Positions 5,129 to 61,968 of a stretch of DNA of 64,000 nucleotides are shown here, piece after piece (positions within the stretch are counted from its first letter, which is position 1; each line of letters begins with the position of its first letter). Location: the NCBI RefSeq assembly GCF_050320075.1, contig NZ_CP190018.1. One strand, given 5' to 3'. Origin of the DNA: Escherichia coli. GTDB lineage: Bacteria; Pseudomonadota; Gammaproteobacteria; Enterobacterales; Enterobacteriaceae. The notes below the pieces were generated by a model. It had not been told where the DNA came from, ran no database searches, and saw only the letters and a list, made by a program, of their open reading frames with translations. The position numbers and the translations under genes were made by a program.

Positions 5129-5875
5129 ATGTTAAGTATTAAAGATTTACACGTCAGCGTGGAAGATAAAGCTATCCTGCGTGGATTAAGCCTCGACGTT
5201 CGTCCCGGCGAAGTTCACGCCATTATGGGGCCAAACGGTTCTGGCAAAAGTACCTTATCGGCAACGCTTGCCGGGCGAGAAGATTATGAGGTGACGGGCG
5301 GCACGGTTGAGTTCAAAGGCAAAGATTTGCTTGCGCTGTCGCCGGAAGATCGTGCAGGTGAAGGCATCTTTATGGCCTTCCAGTATCCGGTGGAAATTCC
5401 CGGCGTCAGTAACCAGTTTTTCCTGCAAACGGCACTTAATGCGGTGCGCAGCTATCGCGGCCAGGAAACGCTCGACCGCTTTGATTTTCAGGATTTGATG
5501 GAAGAGAAAATCGCTCTCCTGAAGATGCCGGAAGATTTATTAACCCGTTCGGTAAACGTTGGTTTTTCCGGCGGCGAGAAAAAGCGCAACGATATTTTTC
5601 AAATGGCGGTGCTGGAACCGGAGTTATGCATTCTTGATGAGTCGGACTCCGGGCTGGATATTGACGCATTAAAAGTGGTTGCCGATGGCGTGAACTCGCT
5701 GCGTGACGGCAAGCGCTCATTCATCATTGTTACGCACTACCAACGCATTCTCGACTACATCAAGCCTGATTACGTCCATGTGCTGTATCAGGGACGAATT
5801 GTGAAATCCGGAGATTTCACGTTGGTCAAACAACTGGAGGAGCAGGGTTATGGCTGGCTTACCGAACAGCAGTAA
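5129..5875 (+). CDS. sufC: Fe-S cluster assembly ATPase SufC, 248 aa
   Basis: Walker A GPNGSGKST; ABC signature FSGGEKKR. Confidence 0.95.
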   Translation: MLSIKDLHVSVEDKAILRGLSLDVRPGEVHAIMGPNGSGKSTLSATLAGREDYEVTGGTVEFKGKDLLALSPEDRAGEGIFMAFQYPVEIPGVSNQFFLQTALNAVRSYRGQETLDRFDFQDLMEEKIALLKMPEDLLTRSVNVGFSGGEKKRNDIFQMAVLEPELCILDESDSGLDIDALKVVADGVNSLRDGKRSFIIVTHYQRILDYIKPDYVHVLYQGRIVKSGDFTLVKQLEEQGYGWLTEQQ

Positions 5876-9920: not shown

Positions 9921-9934
9921 CGGTAAATGGCAGG

Positions 9935-9966
9935 CAAAAAAATGGCGCACAATGTGCGCCATTTTT
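9935..9966. terminator. bidirectional intrinsic terminator shared by ldtE (+) and lpp (-)
   Basis: AAAAAAATGGCGCACAATGTGCGCCATTTTT: palindromic stem flanked by A-tract and T-tract. Confidence 0.8.
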
Positions 9967-20635: not shown

Positions 20636-20941
20636 TCAGGCGAGTTTTGCCTGATTGATTTGACTCAGTGGCTCATTGACATCGAAAACTTTGGCGACAA
20701 CTTCCTCAACGCCGAGATTTTTCAGTCGGGCAGTATGTTTTTCCAGATAGGCAAGGGCGCTTTTTTCATCAGTGAAAAGGTAGATCCCACCGGCTTCGTG
20801 GTTCTTTTCACTTTCTGTCCATACCTTCCACAGAAAACCAGGTTCCTGATTAATCGACTCAGCAAGCGGTTCAAGCTGCTCAGCCATTGCGTCGCCAAAT
20901 GGGCCATTAAAAGCAAAATGAAGTTGTAACAAAGTTGCCAT
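20636..20941 (-). CDS. ydhR: putative monooxygenase YdhR, 101 aa
   Basis: 101-aa ORF adjacent to the tRNA-Val pair. Confidence 0.85.
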
Positions 20942-21048
20942 AGCGATTCTCCTTCTGATAACGCATACGAAGACAGTGTAAATCTTTTAATGTATTGGAT
21001 ACAGAGAAGAAACAGAGGGAAAAAGGAGAAGACCAGATTAAGAAAATC

Positions 21049-21125
21049 TGGTGCGTCCGAGTGGACTCGAACCACCGACCCCCACCATGTCAAGGTGGTG
21101 CTCTAACCAACTGAGCTACGGACGC
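21049..21125 (-). tRNA. valW: tRNA-Val (anticodon GAC), 77 nt with encoded CCA
   Basis: Reverse complement reads GCGTCCGTAGCTCAGTTGGTTAGAGCACCACCTTGACATGGTGGGGGTCGGTGGTTCGAGTCCACTCGGACGCACCA; anticodon loop TTGACAT. Confidence 0.95.
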
Positions 21126-21129
21126 AGGA

Positions 21130-21206
21130 TGGTGCGTTCAATTGGACTCGAACCAACGACCCCCACCATGTCAAGGTGGTGCTCTAACCAACTGAGCTAT
21201 GAACGC
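21130..21206 (-). tRNA. valV: tRNA-Val (anticodon GAC), 77 nt with encoded CCA
   Basis: Reverse complement reads GCGTTCATAGCTCAGTTGGTTAGAGCACCACCTTGACATGGTGGGGGTCGTTGGTTCGAGTCCAATTGAACGCACCA; 4-bp spacer to the other copy. Confidence 0.95.
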
Positions 21207-27842: not shown

Positions 27843-28775
27843 ATGTGGTCAGAATATTCACTCGAAGTTGTTGATGCGGTAGCGCGTAATGGTAGTTTTA
27901 GCGCTGCGGCACAGGAGTTGCATCGCGTTCCTTCTGCGGTCAGCTATACCGTGCGTCAGCTGGAAGAGTGGCTGGCGGTGCCGCTGTTTGAACGACGTCA
28001 CCGTGATGTGGAACTGACCGCTGCCGGGGCGTGGTTTCTCAAAGAAGGGCGCTCTGTTGTCAAAAAAATGCAGATCACCCGGCAGCAATGTCAGCAGATA
28101 GCGAACGGCTGGCGCGGTCAGTTAGCTATCGCAGTGGATAATATTGTCAGGCCGGAACGTACACGGCAGATGATCGTTGATTTTTATCGCCATTTTGATG
28201 ATGTCGAACTCCTTGTCTTTCAGGAAGTGTTCAACGGTGTCTGGGATGCGCTTTCCGACGGGCGCGTGGAACTGGCGATTGGCGCAACACGCGCGATTCC
28301 GGTAGGCGGTCGTTATGCCTTCCGCGATATGGGGATGCTAAGCTGGAGTTGCGTTGTTGCCAGTCACCACCCGCTGGCGTTGATGGATGGCCCGTTCAGC
28401 GATGATACGTTGCGCAACTGGCCGTCGTTGGTGCGCGAAGACACCTCGCGAACGCTACCTAAACGTATTACCTGGTTGCTGGATAACCAAAAAAGACTTG
28501 TCGTGCCTGACTGGGAATCATCGGCAACCTGTATCTCTGCAGGATTATGCATAGGGATGGTGCCAACACATTTCGCCAAACCGTGGCTTAATGAGGGGAA
28601 GTGGGTGGCACTAGAACTGGAAAACCCCTTCCCGGATTCGGCATGTTGTCTGACATGGCAGCAAAATGATATGTCGCCTGCGTTAACCTGGTTGCTTGAG
28701 TATCTCGGCGATAGTGAGACGCTGAATAAGGAGTGGCTGCGGGAGCCGGAAGAGACTCCCGCAACGGGTGATTAA
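27843..28775 (+). CDS. punR: LysR-family transcriptional regulator PunR (YdhB), 310 aa
   Basis: N-terminal [36 protein letters not shown]; 3' end overlaps purR stop by 4 nt. Confidence 0.88.
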
Positions 28776-29797
28776 CGACGATAGTCGCGGAACGGGCCGT
28801 CAGCCACGGAGCGGCGTTCAATCAACCGCGGATGCACTTCAATGGATTGCGGTTCTTCGCGTTTATTGACGATACGATCCAACAGCATATTGAACGCAGT
28901 TTCGCCCAGCGAATCTTTTGGCTGATGGATCGTGGTCAGCGCCGGCGTAAAATAGCGGGCGTTGCGCACGTTATCATACCCGATCAGCGAAACATCCTGC
29001 GGGACGCGCAGACCCATTTCATCAGCAGCACAAAGTGCGCCCATTGCCATGATATCGCCACCACAGAAGACGGCAGTAGGGCGATGCGGCTGCGACAGGA
29101 TTTGCTGCATGGCGCGATAACCGGATTCAGGTTCAAAGTCACCCTGCACAATCCAGCTTTCCGGCACTTTGATCATCGCTTCTTCCATCGCCTTCATAAA
29201 ACCGGCAAGGCGGCCTGCGCCGGTGTTACGTTCCAGTGGGCCAGGGATAACGCCGATTTCGCGGTGACCGCGTTCAATCAGATAACGCCCGGCCATGTAG
29301 CCGCCTTCGAACGCGTTATCAATGACCGCATCGGTGAAGTCAGCTTTTGCTTCACCCCAGTCCATCACCACCATCGGGATATGGCGATACTCTTCCAGCA
29401 TCGCCAGCAACGGCTCTGGGTACTCAGAACACATCACCAGCAGACCATCGACGCGTTTTTGCGCCATCATCGACAGATAAGCCCGCTGTTTCTCAAGATT
29501 GTTCCACGCATTGCCCAGAATCAGGGTGTAACCTTTCTGGAAGCAATTTTTTTCAACCGCTTCAATGATCTCGGCAAAATAGGCCGCTTCGCTGCTGGTC
29601 GCCAGCAAACCGATAGACTTGGTGTGGTTAACCTTCAGACTACGCGCCACCGCGCTAGGGGAGTAGTGTAATTCTTTGATCGCTGCCCACACGGCGTTGC
29701 GCGTTTCTTCAGCGACGAAACGTGTTTTGTTGATCACGTGTGACACAGTTGTAGTGGAAACGTTTGCTCGTTTCGCTACATCTTTTATTGTTGCCAT
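28772..29797 (-). CDS. purR: purine repressor PurR (LacI family), 341 aa
   Basis: [55 protein letters not shown]... Confidence 0.97.
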
Positions 29798-29841
29798 TCC
29801 ATTTCACTCCAGACCCTAACTTCAGCTCCTGCAAAATCGCA

Positions 29842-29857
29842 AGGTAAACGTTTGCCT
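29842..29857 (-). promoter_or_regulatory. PurR operator (PUR box) in the purR leader
   Basis: Minus strand reads AGGCAAACGTTTACCT, matching ANGCAAACGTTTNCNT; 45-60 bp upstream of purR ATG. Confidence 0.6.
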
Positions 29858-30066
29858 TTACACACCTTACGCACAACAAAAGTGTTGCGGTACGCCGGAA
29901 AAACGACACGGAGCGTCAGGAAGGGGTCAATGGCCAGTACGCAAATAGTGTAAGCGTGGAATTTTGGCCGATCTTGACGAAAAGGGGAAGTGGTAAAAAC
30001 ACTTATCATTATAAATGACGGGAGATTTTTTCATCACAGTGTGTAAAAATGCGTAATATCACTTTT

Positions 30067-30075
30067 TGTGTGGTA
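30067..30075. repeat. IS1 target-site duplication, left copy TGTGTGGTA
   Basis: Identical 9-mer directly flanks both ends of the element. Confidence 0.9.
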
Positions 30076-30098
30076 GGTGATGCTGCCAACTTACTGAT
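30076..30098. repeat. IS1 left terminal inverted repeat
   Basis: GGTGATGCTGCCAACTTACTGAT. Confidence 0.9.
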
Positions 30099-30130
30099 TT
30101 AGTGTATGATGGTGTTTTTGAGGTGCTCCA

Positions 30131-30406
30131 GTGGCTTCTGTTTCTATCAGCTGTCCCTCCTGTTCAGCTACTGACGGGGTGGTGCGTAACGGCAAAAGCA
30201 CCGCCGGACATCAGCGCTATCTCTGCTCTCACTGCCGTAAAACATGGCAACTGCAGTTCACTTACACCGCTTCTCAACCCGGTACGCACCAGAAAATCAT
30301 TGATATGGCCATGAATGGCGTTGGATGCCGGGCAACTGCCCGCATTATGGGCGTTGGCCTCAACACGATTTTCCGCCATTTAAAAAACTCAGGCCGCAGT
30401 CGGTAA
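30131..30406 (+). CDS. insA: IS1 InsA (DNA-binding inhibitor; N-terminal part of InsAB' transposase), 91 aa
   Basis: [43 protein letters not shown]... zinc-finger and HTH. Confidence 0.97.
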
Positions 30407-30828
30407 CCTCGCGCATACAGCCGGGCAGTGACGTCATCGTCTGCGCGGAAATGGACGAACAGTGGGGATACGTCGGGGCTAAATCGCGCCAGCGCTGGCT
30501 GTTTTACGCGTATGACAGGCTCCGGAAGACGGTTGTTGCGCACGTATTCGGTGAACGCACTATGGCGACGCTGGGGCGTCTTATGAGCCTGCTGTCACCC
30601 TTTGACGTGGTGATATGGATGACGGATGGCTGGCCGCTGTATGAATCCCGCCTGAAGGGAAAGCTGCACGTAATCAGCAAGCGATATACGCAGCGAATTG
30701 AGCGGCATAACCTGAATCTGAGGCAGCACCTGGCACGGCTGGGACGGAAGTCGCTGTCGTTCTCAAAATCGGTGGAGCTGCATGACAAAGTCATCGGGCA
30801 TTATCTGAACATAAAACACTATCAATAA
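30325..30828 (+). CDS. insB: IS1 InsB reading frame, 167 aa; expressed as InsAB' by -1 frameshift
   Basis: [16 protein letters not shown]...; overlaps insA in the -1 frame. Confidence 0.95.
30382..30388 (+). other. IS1 programmed -1 ribosomal frameshift slippery site AAAAAAC
   Basis: A6C heptamer in the insA/insB overlap, read directly. Confidence 0.85.
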
Positions 30829-30843
30829 GTTGGAGTCATTACC
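30821..30843. repeat. IS1 right terminal inverted repeat
   Basis: Reverse complement GGTAATGACTCCAACTTATTGAT is an imperfect match to the left repeat. Confidence 0.9.
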
Positions 30844-30852
30844 TGTGTGGTA
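30844..30852. repeat. IS1 target-site duplication, right copy TGTGTGGTA
   Basis: Identical to 30067-30075. Confidence 0.9.
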
Positions 30853-30872
30853 ATAAAAAAGGAGAAAACTTG

Positions 30873-30962
30873 ATGAGCACCGACCTTAAATTTTCACTGG
30901 TAACAACGATTATCGTCCTCGGTTTGATCGTGGCCGTGGGTTTGACTGCCGCGCTGCACTGA
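30873..30962 (+). CDS. ynhF: small hydrophobic protein YnhF, 29 aa
   Basis: ATG at 30873 preceded by GGAG; single-TM peptide MSTDLKFSLVTTIIVLGLIVAVGLTAALH; not in the ORF track because it is shorter than the track cut-off. Confidence 0.7.
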   Translation: MSTDLKFSLVTTIIVLGLIVAVGLTAALH

Positions 30963-31127
30963 TTTCCTCTCGAGGGAGCGCGTTCTCCCTCGCATCTCCT
31001 TCCTGTTTGTTAGCAAAATGGCAAAAGTGTTTTCTCTTTTTGTTATTTTCATTTTTTTGTGATTGCTGTCATGCTTTCGCCACTTTAATGAATATCGCGT
31101 AATGACGCGAAGAGGTGGAGATAAGGC

Positions 31128-32297
31128 ATGAAAATTAACTATCCGTTGCTGGCGCTGGCGATTGGCGCGTTTGGTATCGGGACAACGGAGTTCTCGCCAA
31201 TGGGCTTGTTGCCCGTCATTGCGCGCGGTGTGGATGTCTCGATTCCCGCTGCCGGAATGTTAATCAGTGCCTATGCAGTTGGCGTAATGGTTGGCGCGCC
31301 GCTGATGACGCTTCTACTTTCTCATCGTGCCCGCCGCAGTGCGTTGATTTTCCTGATGGCGATTTTCACGCTCGGCAATGTACTTTCCGCCATCGCGCCG
31401 GATTATATGACTCTGATGCTTTCACGCATTTTGACCAGCCTGAATCACGGAGCATTTTTTGGTTTGGGTTCAGTTGTGGCCGCAAGCGTGGTGCCAAAAC
31501 ATAAACAGGCCAGCGCAGTTGCCACTATGTTTATGGGGTTAACCCTGGCAAATATCGGTGGCGTGCCGGCGGCGACCTGGTTGGGTGAAACCATCGGCTG
31601 GCGGATGTCATTTCTGGCAACGGCGGGGCTGGGAGTGATTTCAATGGTAAGTCTGTTCTTCTCATTACCTAAAGGTGGCGCAGGGGCGCGACCTGAAGTG
31701 AAAAAAGAGCTGGCGGTATTAATGCGTCCGCAGGTGCTGTCTGCATTGCTGACGACGGTACTGGGAGCTGGTGCAATGTTTACCCTCTACACCTATATCT
31801 CTCCGGTACTGCAAAGTATTACCCACGCAACGCCGGTGTTCGTTACGGCAATGCTGGTGCTGATTGGTGTCGGATTCTCTATTGGTAACTATCTCGGCGG
31901 CAAACTGGCAGATCGTTCAGTTAACGGCACGTTGAAAGGCTTTTTGTTGCTGCTGATGGTGATTATGCTGGCAATCCCGTTCCTGGCCCGCAATGAGTTC
32001 GGCGCAGCTATTAGCATGGTGGTGTGGGGCGCTGCAACCTTTGCGGTCGTACCGCCGTTACAGATGCGCGTGATGCGTGTCGCCAGTGAAGCGCCAGGTC
32101 TGTCTTCATCAGTCAATATTGGTGCCTTTAATCTTGGAAATGCGCTGGGAGCAGCTGCTGGTGGTGCGGTAATTTCCGCTGGGCTGGGATACAGTTTTGT
32201 GCCGGTGATGGGGGCGATAGTCGCGGGACTGGCATTATTGCTGGTGTTTATGTCAGCCAGAAAACAACCTGAGGCAGTTTGCGTTGCCAACAGCTAA
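31128..32297 (+). CDS. ydhP: MFS transporter YdhP, 389 aa
   Basis: 389-aa 12-TM MFS protein. Confidence 0.9.
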   Translation: MKINYPLLALAIGAFGIGTTEFSPMGLLPVIARGVDVSIPAAGMLISAYAVGVMVGAPLMTLLLSHRARRSALIFLMAIFTLGNVLSAIAPDYMTLMLSRILTSLNHGAFFGLGSVVAASVVPKHKQASAVATMFMGLTLANIGGVPAATWLGETIGWRMSFLATAGLGVISMVSLFFSLPKGGAGARPEVKKELAVLMRPQVLSALLTTVLGAGAMFTLYTYISPVLQSITHATPVFVTAMLVLIGVGFSIGNYLGGKLADRSVNGTLKGFLLLLMVIMLAIPFLARNEFGAAISMVVWGAATFAVVPPLQMRVMRVASEAPGLSSSVNIGAFNLGNALGAAAGGAVISAGLGYSFVPVMGAIVAGLALLLVFMSARKQPEAVCVANS

Positions 32298-34711: not shown

Positions 34712-37700
34712 CTATCCCCAATCCAGCCCTTGTGGCGAACTTGAAAATCCCGCCTCACGCAGCAGCGTAAACATCGGCGTTTGCCGGACCGGTAGATCAT
34801 TCACTTCTGTTAGCGTAAAGCGCAGCCGTGGTTCGCGACGCAGTGCGGTGGTCAGCGCCTGGAAAATCTCTGGGGCGAGTAATTCATCTTTTTCCTGCCA
34901 GACCAGCATTTTTTTGCCGCCTTGCGCCAGATAGAGTAACAATTTGCCGCCAGAAACGACCACCAGCGCACCCGCCCGACGCGTTGGAACCAGCGTTGCC
35001 GGATGTGCAGGCCAGGGCAGAAGATTTCCCCACACATTAGCCGGATCGTTGGCGGAGAGCGCCACTGGTGTATAGTGGCGCGTTTGCGTGGCTTGTGTCG
35101 CCAGATCGCGCAATCGGTCAATAGTCAGACGTTCAGCGAATTGCGCACCCCCCAGACCTTCTACAAAACGACCTCGCATAATTCGCCCGGAGTCTTCCAT
35201 ACTTCGACAAAGCGTTTGCATCGATGGAAACCCGCCAGGGATATTTTCGGCTATCACCGCCTGACGACTGATGATGCCGTAGCGGTCGAGCATATTTTCC
35301 GCCAGCGCCAGCATCCTTTCGGTATCGTTTAGTGGCTCCACCTGCAATAACGACCAGCGTCCAGCAAGATTTGGTGTGTTGTAAGATACCCGTGGCGAGA
35401 CGGGTTGTGCATAGACAGGACGCCCACGACGAGCCCGGTGACTGCGGCGAGTCGAGGTGCGTGCGTTGGAACTGCTGCGGGTGAGGGCGCGTAACGGTGC
35501 CCAAATGTCGCTGGTGATGACGCCTTGCCAGACCAGCGCCCATAACGCCTCTTGCATGGCTGAGGGATCAACCGATTCGCCGATTTTATCGCGTATCCGT
35601 TGGCTGATTTGTTGTGCAAACCAGGCTCCTCCGTCAGCCAGAACAGCGATTATCGCTTGCTGCAGCGCCGAACGATTCGCCTGATCTGCTTCGGCGGGAG
35701 TGAACGATTCTGCGGCATATTCCTGTAGATGCAGTGCCACCAGACCGTCATCTTCACCCAGCTTTTTTTGCCCCGACCAGATAACCGCACCGGTTGCCAG
35801 TAATTCATCGAGCATTTCTGGCGAATAGTCGCGTACGCGGGCAGGCAGGATCTGGCTTTCCCAGAGTGAGGCGGGTAAACCAACGCCAGCAAGCTGTTCG
35901 ATCACCCGCATCACGCCATCCACGCCCTCATAAACGCCTGGCGATGTTGAGGCAAAGAGTGCCGGGCTACCATCGGTGGCGGGTAATACGCCCTGACGTT
36001 CCAGCAGCAATCGCGCATAGGTCGTGGCCGCAACGGGACGTGTCGCTTCTCTGGCGGCTTGCAGCGAGCGCAAACGCAGACGACGAAATACTTCATCGCT
36101 CACCCAGATGTCTTGTTGCAGATTCATCACCAGCCCCTGTTCGCGCAGTTGCTGAAGTTGCTCTTCGACAATGGCAATACCGAGACTAAACTCATGAGCC
36201 AGTTGTTCAGACGTGACCAGAGCATGAGCCCGGAGATAGCGCAGAAAGAGGTCGCGAAGCGGGTAACTGACTCGGTGCAAATAAATCTCTGGCAGTGACT
36301 CTGGTAGTCGTACGCCGAGAGCATCGCGCAGCCTGGCGGCATCATCCATACAGGCAAGACGCTCCTGCCCGCTAATCATGGTCGGGAAGATTCGTTTTAC
36401 TGCAAGAAGATTTTCCAGATACGACGCAATCTCTTCACTGCTGCCTGTATGTCGTTGCGCCAGGTCTTCAACGGTCATTGGCCCCAGTTCGCGCAGCAGG
36501 TCGAACAATCCTTCTTCACCTTTCGCTCTTCTGCCAGGAGCCAGTCGTTGCAACTCTTCTTCCACCTGGCGAATGACCTGCGGGTCGAGTAATTCCCCCG
36601 GATCGACCTGTCCGAGTAGATTGCGCAGTAACTCGCTGTCCAGCGACAGTACGGATGCCCGGCGCTCTGCCAGCGGGGCGTCGCTCTGGTACATAAATTC
36701 CGCGACATAGCCGAACAATAAACTGGCGGCGAAAGGCGAAGGCGTAGTGGTCGTTACATCGGATATTTGAATTTCGCCACCGTTCAGGCGACGCATCAAA
36801 CGTTCCAGCGCGGGAAGATCATAAACATCTTGCAGACATTCGCGTAGTGTTTCGAGAATGACCGGAAAATCCGGATATCCCTGAGCGATTTCCAGCAACT
36901 GACTGGCGCGCAGCCGTTGTTGCCAGAGCGGGGTGCGATGGCCCGGCGTGCGGCCCGGCATTAATAATGCCCGCGCGGAGCATTCGCGAAAACGGGCGGC
37001 GAAAAGTGCCGAGCTGCCTACCGCCTCGCGGACAATTTGCAGCAACTTTTCTGGTTCAAACAAAAAAATCGCGGCATCAGGCAATTTACCATCGGTGTCA
37101 GGAATGCGCGCAACAATGCCGTCATCACTGGCAACCACAGACGCGTCAGCGCCCCATAGTGCATGTATTCGCCCGGCAATCGCCAGCGCCCAGGGTTCAT
37201 GCACCCGTCTTCCATAGGGAGAGTGCAAAATAATACGCCAGTCACCAATTTCATCACGGCACCGTTCGAGGACCAGATGACGACTACCTGGAACGATGCC
37301 CGTCGCGTTGCGCTGCTCGTCAATCAACCCCTGAATATTGGCGATCGTATTTTCTTCTGCCAACCACGGGGGAATAGTCCCGGAAAAGAACGCGCCATCC
37401 GCCAGTAAATGGAGAAAATCGCCGATCATCTCGCCTAATTCTGCCGGACGTCCGTTACCTTCACCACGCCAGAAGGGAAGGCGGGCAGAACGACCTGGAG
37501 CAGGAGTCACAATCACCTGATCGCGGGTGATTTGCTGGATCCGCCATGAGGTAGCGCCGAGAGTGATAATGTCGTTCACCCGCGACTCATATACCATCTC
37601 CTCATCCAGTTCACCCACCCGCCGCGAACCGGCCTGTTCTTCACCTTCGGGTAATAACACGCTATACATGCCACGATCCGGAATGGTGCCGCCGCTGGTA

Positions 37701-39326
37701 ACCGCCAACAATTGAGCGCCAGGTCGGGCGGTCAATATCCCGGTCTCCCGGTTCCAGACCAGTTTGGGGCGAAAAGCAGAAAAATCGCCAGAGGGATAGC
37801 GCCCGGAAAGCATATCCAGCGTGGCGTCAAAAACACGTCTTGGCAGATCTTTCCACGGTGCGGCACGGCGTACGCGGGAGTACCATTCGTCTACCTGTAA
37901 TGCATCCATCGCCGCGGCGGCAACGGTTTGCTGCGCAAGGACGTCGAGTGGATTATGCGGCGGTGTCAGGTTTTCCAGCCTGCCTGCGAACATACACTCT
38001 ACAATGACTGCGGAATCGACTAAGTCACGCCTGGTTCGGGGGAAAAAAAGCCCTTTGGAGATACCACCTACCTGGTGTCCGGCACGTCCAATGCGTTGTA
38101 ACCCACTGGCAACAGAAAGCGGCGTTGCCACCTGAATCACCAGATCCACCGCGCCCATATCAATCCCCAGTTCGAGACTGGAGGTTGCGACCACGCAGCG
38201 TAATTCACCCGATTTCAGCGCCTGTTCGGTGATTGCTCGTTGTTCTTTAGAGACGGAGCCGTGGTGTGAGCGGGCAATAAAAATGTCGCTATTTTGTACA
38301 CGGTTAGAGGTTGCGCCGGAGGTCGACTCGAAATGGACCGCATCAACGGCGATAGACGGGGAACGCTGTAAGCGTGCGGCGTAAAGCTCATTCAATCGTG
38401 CCGTCAGTTTTTCCGCCAGCCCGCGTGAATTAGTAAAGACAATGGTCGAGCGATGGCGCAAAACTTCATCAAGGATACCCGTTTCAATATATGGCCAGAT
38501 GGAGCCTTCCCGGCCGGCATGGCTGTCTTCGCCGGTGCCGCTGGCGACCGATGAGACATCATCCATATTGGCGACCGGTACGACAATCCGTATCTGCGGA
38601 TGGCGCATTGCGGGCGGGTTGACTACCGTAACCGGGCGATCGCCGCCAAGAAATGCTGCCACATCGCTGGCTGAACGCACAGTGGCAGAAAGGCCAATTC
38701 GCTGTGCTGAGGTGTGGAGCTGCGCATCGAGCCGCTCCAGACTTAACGCCAGATGCGCACCACGTTTACTGCCTGCTACCGCGTGGACTTCATCAATAAT
38801 TACCGTTTCGACGCCGCGTAGCGTTTCGCGCGCGGGAGGTCAGCATCAGATAGAGTGATTCGGGTGTGGTGATCAGAATATCCGGCGGATTACGGGTGAG
38901 TTTGCTGCGTTCCTGTGCAGGCGTATCGCCAGTACGGATCCCCACGCGAAGATTGACTTCCGTTTCGCCGCGCCGCCGCCGTTCATCGGCAATACCCTGT
39001 AACGGGATCTGCAAGTTGCGCTGAACGTCGGTGCCCAGAGCTTTGATCGGTGAAATATAGAGGATGCGTGAGGTTTTACGCTTATGCGCCTCGCGGGTAT
39101 CTTCGCCGCCTTCGCGGAAGAGCTGATCGAGGGCGTAGAGAAATGCTGCCAGCGTTTTCCCGGAGCCAGTCGGTGCAATCACCAGCGCATGTTCGCCTCG
39201 CGCCGCCACATGCCAGGTTTGCGACTGGACAGCGGTCGGCTGTTTAAAGGCGCGAAGAAACCAGTCGCGGGTCGCCGGTGAAAACACGTCCGGCAGGGGC
39301 GATGAAGGGTTTAGATTATCTGCCAT
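34712..39326 (-). pseudogene. lhr: lhr (large ATP-dependent helicase) interrupted by a frameshift: N-terminal 177-codon ORF 38793..39326, remainder open in another frame from about 38839 to 34712
   Basis: Walker A APTGSGKT in the upstream ORF; DEVH motif II and the rest of the helicase in a different frame; junction in CGCGCGCG at 38827-38834. Confidence 0.75.

Positions 39327-59271: not shown

Positions 59272-61968
<2,697 letters not shown>

Follow-up and report, generated by a model that had tools for sequence, protein, structure and literature searches.

An IS1 insertion private to Escherichia coli YZLc1-3 parts cydH from its conserved upstream region

The chromosome of Escherichia coli YZLc1-3 carries a complete IS1 element between purR and cydH (ynhF), and the insertion is recent and private to this one strain. 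The element was analysed within a stretch of 64,000 nucleotides of chromosomal DNA (the window), and we hold, with a probability of roughly 90%, that an intact plasmid-type IS1 recently moved by simple transposition into the AT-rich DNA between purR and cydH in YZLc1-3. The event is a routine textbook insertion, and this instance of it is already annotated in RefSeq. What is added here is that the insertion is strain-private, that the site is empty in the close relatives, and that cydH has been parted from its conserved upstream region without the formation of a fusion promoter. Knowledge of IS1, of transposition and of cytochrome bd is unchanged by the finding, and its practical value is modest. 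The features of the locus are listed in Table 1.

Table 1. Features of the purR-cydH locus and of the IS1 inserted in it; positions are counted from the first nucleotide of the window.
Feature	Position	Strand	Basis or remark
purR, divergent neighbour, intact	28772..29797	-	ORF list, RefSeq
Genuine 5' part of RF02081 (STnc550), corresponding to the purR-cydH intergenic region	29798..30075	+	Remainder at 30853-30962; IS1 splits the family
Conserved cydH upstream blocks, now cut off	30025..30075	+	Alignment, hexamer scoring, pair counts; promoter role putative
ATTTTT block	30025-30030		Conserved across Enterobacteriaceae
TGTGTAAAAATG = TGTGYAAAAATG block, candidate extended -10 TGnAAAAAT	30040-30051		Conserved across Enterobacteriaceae
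TAATAT, alternative -10	30054-30059		E. coli hexamer
CTCACTTTT/GTGGG block	30058-30072		Conserved; contains small hairpin CAC-TTTTT-GTG (30060-30070)
Left target-site duplication copy TGTGTGGTA	30067..30075	.	Sequence; single copy at the empty site of relatives
Complete IS1, 768 bp, IS1B/IS1R-type isoform	30076..30843	+	insA-insB reads towards cydH
IRL, left terminal inverted repeat	30076..30098	+	Pairs with IRR at 18/23 positions
Promoter-like CTGCCA-16-TATGAT, in or beside IRL, upstream of insA	30083..30110	+	Sole sigma-70-like match on the + strand, 29750-31150
insA ORF, 91 aa, GTG start	30131..30406	+	NCBIfam IS1 transposase N-terminal part and Zn-binding domain
insB frame	30325..30828	+	With insA encodes the InsAB' transposase (30131-30828, -1 frameshift)
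A6C (AAAAAAC), programmed -1 frameshift site	30382..30388	+	Sequence script
IRR, right terminal inverted repeat, cydH-adjacent	30821..30843	+	Comparison of ends
Right target-site duplication copy TGTGTGGTA	30844..30852	.	Sequence
cydH (ynhF), 29-aa accessory subunit of cytochrome bd-I, intact	30873..30962	+	NF033411, 50.2 bits; RefSeq cydH

The strain was isolated from chicken faeces in Yangzhou, and the window corresponds to about 2,447,049-2,511,048 of its chromosome record (NZ_CP123240.1). No account of strain YZLc1-3 was found in the main text of the literature. The window is ordinary core chromosome, running from ydiJ/suf through purR, cydH and sodB to rsx, with the standard gene order on both sides of the element. 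Comparison of the window with the RefSeq record showed three differences, all of which lie outside the IS1 region. The stretch from 29476 to 31443 is identical in both, and the finding is therefore independent of the assembly version.

A sequence-only reading of the window had described an IS1 of 768 bp at this position, with both terminal inverted repeats, insA, insB and the A6C slippery site, and each of these was confirmed by reading of the sequence and by script. The outer ends of the element (GGTGATGCTGCCAACTTACTGAT... on the left and ...ATCAATAAGTTGGAGTCATTACC on the right) pair as inverted repeats at 18 of 23 positions, in agreement with the length of about 768 bp and the imperfect ends of about 23 bp (GGTGATGCTGCCAAC... 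and GGTAATGACTCCAAC...) that define the IS1 family. The two reading frames and the frameshift site are likewise those of IS1; on conceptual translation, a -1 slip at A6C gives an uninterrupted InsAB' of 232 aa. This fusion scored 243.8 bits against the NCBIfam IS1 family transposase profile (NF033558, cut-off of 100 bits) and covered profile positions 1-199 of 199, and the separate insA and insB ORFs each matched one half of the IS1 transposase profile.

The element differs from IS1R of plasmid R100/NR1 by 1 nt (99.9% identical), from IS1B/IS1C of K-12 by 3 nt (99.6% identical) and from IS1A by 7 nt, with phenylalanine at InsA position 81 where IS1A has leucine. InsA shows one amino acid difference from InsA1 of K-12. 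Conjugative plasmids of hosts such as E. coli, Klebsiella and Salmonella bear thousands of further copies that also differ from the element by a single nucleotide. The reference elements IS1B/IS1C and IS1R share its 768 bp, 23-bp ends, insA/insB' organisation with A6C and 9-bp target duplication; the differences are a few point changes and the insertion site, which no other complete genome shares. The element is thus an ordinary plasmid-type IS1, a member of IS1 in all tested respects, and the RefSeq entry for the purR-cydH interval is an 'IS1-like element IS1B family transposase' that includes a programmed frameshift. Because its ORFs and ends are intact, this copy is expected to be competent for transposition. 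The promoter-like string at its left end occupies what we take to be the position of IS1's own promoter, that of insA.

The perfect 9-bp target-site duplication described in the sequence-only reading was borne out. The copies of TGTGTGGTA that abut the two ends of the element are identical, and a script that counted both strands of the 64-kb window found only these two occurrences. The identity stops at exactly 9 bp, with T and C as the preceding bases and G and A as the following bases of the left and right copies, respectively. Simple arithmetic gives a chance of about 4^-9, or 4e-6, that an element is flanked by identical 9-mers. When the flanks were joined with one 9-mer removed, the result was an exact match of 1,191 bp to the uninterrupted locus of strain 746. 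In Ec-U3 and MG1655, the site holds a single TGTGTGGTA, and IS1 ends are absent. A 9-bp direct duplication together with a matching empty site (in 746, Ec-U3 and MG1655) is what an IS1 insertion leaves behind, and the claims that the insertion is a simple one and that K-12 MG1655 lacks it both hold. The alignment to reference genomes that the sequence-only reading had proposed gave the result it had anticipated, namely, absence of the 768 bp and a single TGTGTGGTA at the empty site.

The synthesis of InsAB' by frameshifting, its binding to the ends and the staggered 9-bp cleavage of the target are established for IS1. In the present case, InsAB' would have been produced through the -1 frameshift at A6C and would have joined the two IS1 termini to target DNA cut at TGTGTGGTA with a 9-bp stagger, and repair of the stagger would have given rise to the flanking direct repeats. 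The AT content within 25 bp on either side of the target is 71%, compared with 49% for the whole window, which fits the preference of IS1 for AT-rich targets (Zerbib 1985, as cited in PMC9330008).

The distribution of the insertion was analysed with a query of 1,968 bp, comprising IS1 and 600 bp of flank on each side, against 5,426 complete E. coli genomes. Full coverage of the query was seen in one genome, that of YZLc1-3. The flanks matched over 1,191 bp in the remaining genomes, corresponding to 1,200 bp minus the 9 bp of the duplication. The empty form of the 298-bp purR-cydH intergenic region was found without interruption in each of the 5,423 other genomes that possess it, with YZLc1-3 ranking last; this second comparison is blind to insertions within about 28 nt of the ends of the query, such as those just before the cydH ATG. 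Six strains (Ec-U3, 746, SCU-109, CE2050, ECamp083 and MS14384) are approximately 100% identical to YZLc1-3 over 25 kb of neighbouring chromosome, and the site is empty in all six, as it is in K-12. The possibility, raised in the sequence-only reading, that genomes of the same lineage might share the element is answered by these six relatives, and its proposal that the element is a strain marker stands. Close relatives exist and are empty and the filled site is present in 1 of 5,426 genomes; the insertion is thus recent and private to YZLc1-3. Both junctions can serve as a unique PCR or k-mer marker for the strain among the 5,426 complete genomes. A search of metagenome contigs for the exact IRR-cydH junction returned no match, and no IS1 ends were found in 120 purR loci of other species. 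The region was also considered as a hotspot for insertion sequences, and this was rejected on the basis of these purR loci and of the intergenic region, which, outside those approximately 28 nt, is uninterrupted in every other genome that has it.

Three features show a simple transposition: the 9-bp duplication is intact, the empty site matches exactly, and gene order is normal to the left and right of the element. They argue against a product of IS1-IS1 recombination or an adjacent deletion. An element ancestral to the lineage, a recombination product or an assembly artefact would be conceivable in principle, since about 21 further places on the YZLc1-3 chromosome contain IS1 and could promote recombination or mis-assembly; this reading is largely refuted and retains next to no probability in the face of the perfect duplication with an exact empty site in relatives, the filled site in 0 of 5,425 other genomes, the identity of the region in two assembly versions that differ elsewhere, and the standard gene order around the element.

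With respect to IS1 load, 22 IS1-containing places were counted on the YZLc1-3 chromosome and 27 on that of its closest relative, Ec-U3 (human urine, Burkina Faso). The five other near-identical relatives have 1-2 IS1-containing places, equal to 0-1 IS1 copies. The comparison suggests an IS1 burst in one sublineage (YZLc1-3/Ec-U3), possibly seeded by a plasmid.

The sequence-only reading had placed the element 29 bp from the ynhF start and about 280 bp from purR, and both distances are correct, the latter being 278 bp, counted from 29797, where the purR start codon begins on the minus strand. The purR operators were located at approximately 29843-29858 in the leader and 29758-29771 in the coding sequence, and their sequences match the list of PurR boxes in PMC5110547. 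The purR operators and leader lie 220-320 bp from IS1, and the leader operators and probable promoter are more than 100 bp away. At these distances, the expression of purR is probably unaffected.

The cydH reading frame is itself intact; its profile match exceeds the NF033411 cut-off of 30 bits. The Shine-Dalgarno sequence GGAG (30861-30864) is also intact, and the ATG at 30873 is separated from IS1 by the 29 bp from 30844 to 30872. CydH/YnhF is the fourth subunit of cytochrome bd-I and is made at low oxygen (PMC6853902). It is encoded apart from cydABX and blocks one gas channel of the enzyme (PMC6853902, PMC8951039, PMC12648545). Indirect mentions of ynhF in the literature indicate that a transcription start site exists and that RNase G trims the 5' end. 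The position of the cydH/ynhF transcription start was not found in the full-text literature, including the supplements of Conway 2014 and Romero 2014.

The upstream region of cydH was therefore examined by phylogenetic footprinting. The purR loci of other Enterobacterales were fetched, most of which have cydH beside purR, and 170 nt upstream of cydH were aligned from 30 Enterobacteriaceae. All of the conserved upstream blocks lie to the left of IS1, and the Shine-Dalgarno region alone stays with cydH. An E. coli-specific TTCATC-18-TAATAT at 30030-30059 likewise lies to the left of the insertion point. Each of the two candidate -10 elements has a weakness, as other genera do not conserve TAATAT, and TGnAAAAAT, though conserved, matches the hexamer at only 4 of 6 positions. 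Under either candidate promoter, we infer a start site at about 30056-30067, so that the short leader would now hold IS1, with 777 bp between promoter and gene. The footprint thus supports the claim of the sequence-only reading that the element may separate ynhF from its native promoter. No low-oxygen regulator of cydH was evident in the conserved upstream region.

The small hairpin that overlaps the target was also considered as a conserved structure and tested for covariation. The form CTCAC-TTTTY-GTGGG showed a few compensatory changes (in Kluyvera, Siccibacter and Shimwellia), and 3-11 of the 22 distinct rows were unpaired for each pair, which is too many for such a claim. Downstream of the gene, on the cydH side of the purR-cydH locus, a perfect 8-bp inverted repeat (CGAGGGAG/CTCCCTCG) directly follows the cydH stop codon, at 30963-31000. 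This repeat is likely to be the cydH terminator, although its T-run is weak and the terminator scan made no call. Its position suggests that cydH is monocistronic and that ydhP has its own promoter.

On balance, we expect the expression of cydH to be reduced or deregulated in YZLc1-3. Because the conserved blocks lie beyond IS1, which stands between them and the cydH Shine-Dalgarno sequence, the native low-oxygen-responsive transcription of the gene would be lost. Expression would then be weak and would come only from read-through of IS1, driven by the weak InsA-repressed promoter of the element and by the displaced native promoter, and this read-through towards cydH would be subject to the classical polarity of IS1. 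IS1 is classically polar whichever way it is oriented, and entry at IRL is repressed by InsA. The insA frame stops at 30406 and leaves about 420 nt mostly untranslated.

A neutral effect, in which a normal level of cydH is maintained by read-through or by a promoter within the attached 29 bp, is a rather unlikely outcome. The scan detected nothing resembling an intrinsic terminator on the + strand of IS1, and some read-through is therefore possible and could give appreciable cydH expression, given also that IS1 and cydH read in the same direction. Furthermore, the duplicated 9-mer and the bases that follow it hold TGn-TAATAA, an extended -10-like string. However, the string TAATAA, which does not end in the conserved T, is not shared across genera, and by counting, a start driven from it would fall inside the Shine-Dalgarno GGAG. 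Read-through, for its part, would have to contend with the textbook polarity of IS1 and the repression by InsA at IRL, and every conserved block remains beyond the element.

The sequence-only reading had also suggested that the element could supply outward-reading promoter activity, and this was not upheld, as there is no usable -10 at the right spacing at either junction. A hybrid promoter, in which an outward -35 in an inverted repeat is combined with a -10 in the flank, could raise cydH through IRR or purR through IRL. Outward -35-like hexamers are indeed present (TTGGAG in IRR, 3/6; TTGGCA in IRL, 5/6), and hybrid promoters formed by IS1 are documented (Prentki 1986, as cited in PMC9330008; afaA, PMC8764528). 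However, the hexamers at a spacing of 16-18 bp on the cydH side (AATAAA, ATAAAA and TAAAAA) match at no more than 4 of 6 positions, none with the final T, and the best -10 on the purR side is AAAAGT, with 3 of 6. A consensus promoter scan gave no match at either junction, and counting places a cydH-side start at or after the Shine-Dalgarno sequence, which would leave an untranslatable leader. IS1-borne and hybrid promoters were accordingly rejected at both junctions because of the quality of the hexamers, their spacing and where the implied start would lie with respect to the Shine-Dalgarno sequence, and we regard an increase in cydH or purR by this route as improbable.

The insertions described in ST131 offer a comparison, as they too are promoter-proximal intergenic copies of IS1. 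An upstream IS1 raised afaA, lowered osmB and left ugd unchanged, the last being a precedent for a neutral effect, and the outcome was set by whether a -10 was suitably spaced from the outward -35 of the inverted repeat (PMC8764528). As there is no good -10 at the junction, the purR-cydH locus resembles osmB or ugd in sequence and is unlike afaA.

With cydH parted from its conserved upstream region, YZLc1-3 carries a possible natural regulatory allele of the gene, which could be used to probe the role of CydH in cytochrome bd-I in vivo. It is highly improbable that selection in the chicken intestine favoured the insertion as an adaptive regulatory allele that alters the loading of CydH in cytochrome bd-I; if true, the uncoupling of cydH from low-oxygen control would change the access of oxygen or ligands to bd-I in a gut commensal.

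The insertion also splits the Rfam family STnc550 (RF02081). A cmscan of the window reported this family at 29798-30177 with 261.4 bits, above its gathering score of 48 bits. Only positions up to about 275 (from position 1) are genuinely aligned, and from about 276 on, some 110 model positions are forced onto IS1 sequence. A further fragment of 23.6 bits at 30836-30879 corresponds to model positions 260-302. In comparison, the empty locus of strain 746 (823-1213 of the fetched locus) matched all 388 positions with 396.1 bits, ending just past the cydH stop codon. The empty purR-cydH locus therefore matches the family at full length, whereas the window copy is split at about model position 275. 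This represents an annotation pitfall, as Rfam reports a 'full-length' STnc550 even though IS1 accounts for one third of the match.

In Sittka et al. 2008, STnc550 is a candidate only, with coordinates that equal the whole purR/sodB intergenic region. It was represented there by 6 control reads and 10 Hfq co-IP reads (1.7-fold), the Northern result was given as 'nd', and the probe used maps within the coding sequence of ynhF (Sittka et al. 2008). No mention of STnc550 was found in the main texts of the literature. As the Northern was 'nd', the probe lies in ynhF and the model includes the cydH ORF, RF02081 is the cydH mRNA locus (intergenic region and cydH ORF), and its status as an sRNA is only that of a candidate.

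Further observations were made elsewhere in the window. The first of the three differences from NZ_CP123240.1 is at 5599 in sufC, where the window has T and the record has G, such that residue 157 of SufC is phenylalanine in the window and leucine in the record. The second is in the ldtE-lpp spacer at 9929-9935, with A7 in the window and A8 in the record. The third is at 38826 in lhr (minus strand, about 34712-39326), where 2 bp (CG) of a CGCGCGCG run are missing from the window; as a result, only the window has a frameshift, near codon 170, in lhr, which encodes a 1,538-aa helicase. The window is probably an earlier or unpolished version of the assembly.

A match to Rfam HPnc0260 ('bacterial antisense RNA') was identified at 20925-21087 on the + strand, with 112 bits. 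It lies opposite two tRNA-Val genes (21052-21125 and 21133-21206, minus strand) and the end of ydhR, and the family was probably built on sequence antisense to tRNA. Finally, rsxC contains internal direct repeats at 59319-59745, with an offset of approximately 96 bp and an identity of 88-92%, which probably represent the repetitive linker region of RsxC.
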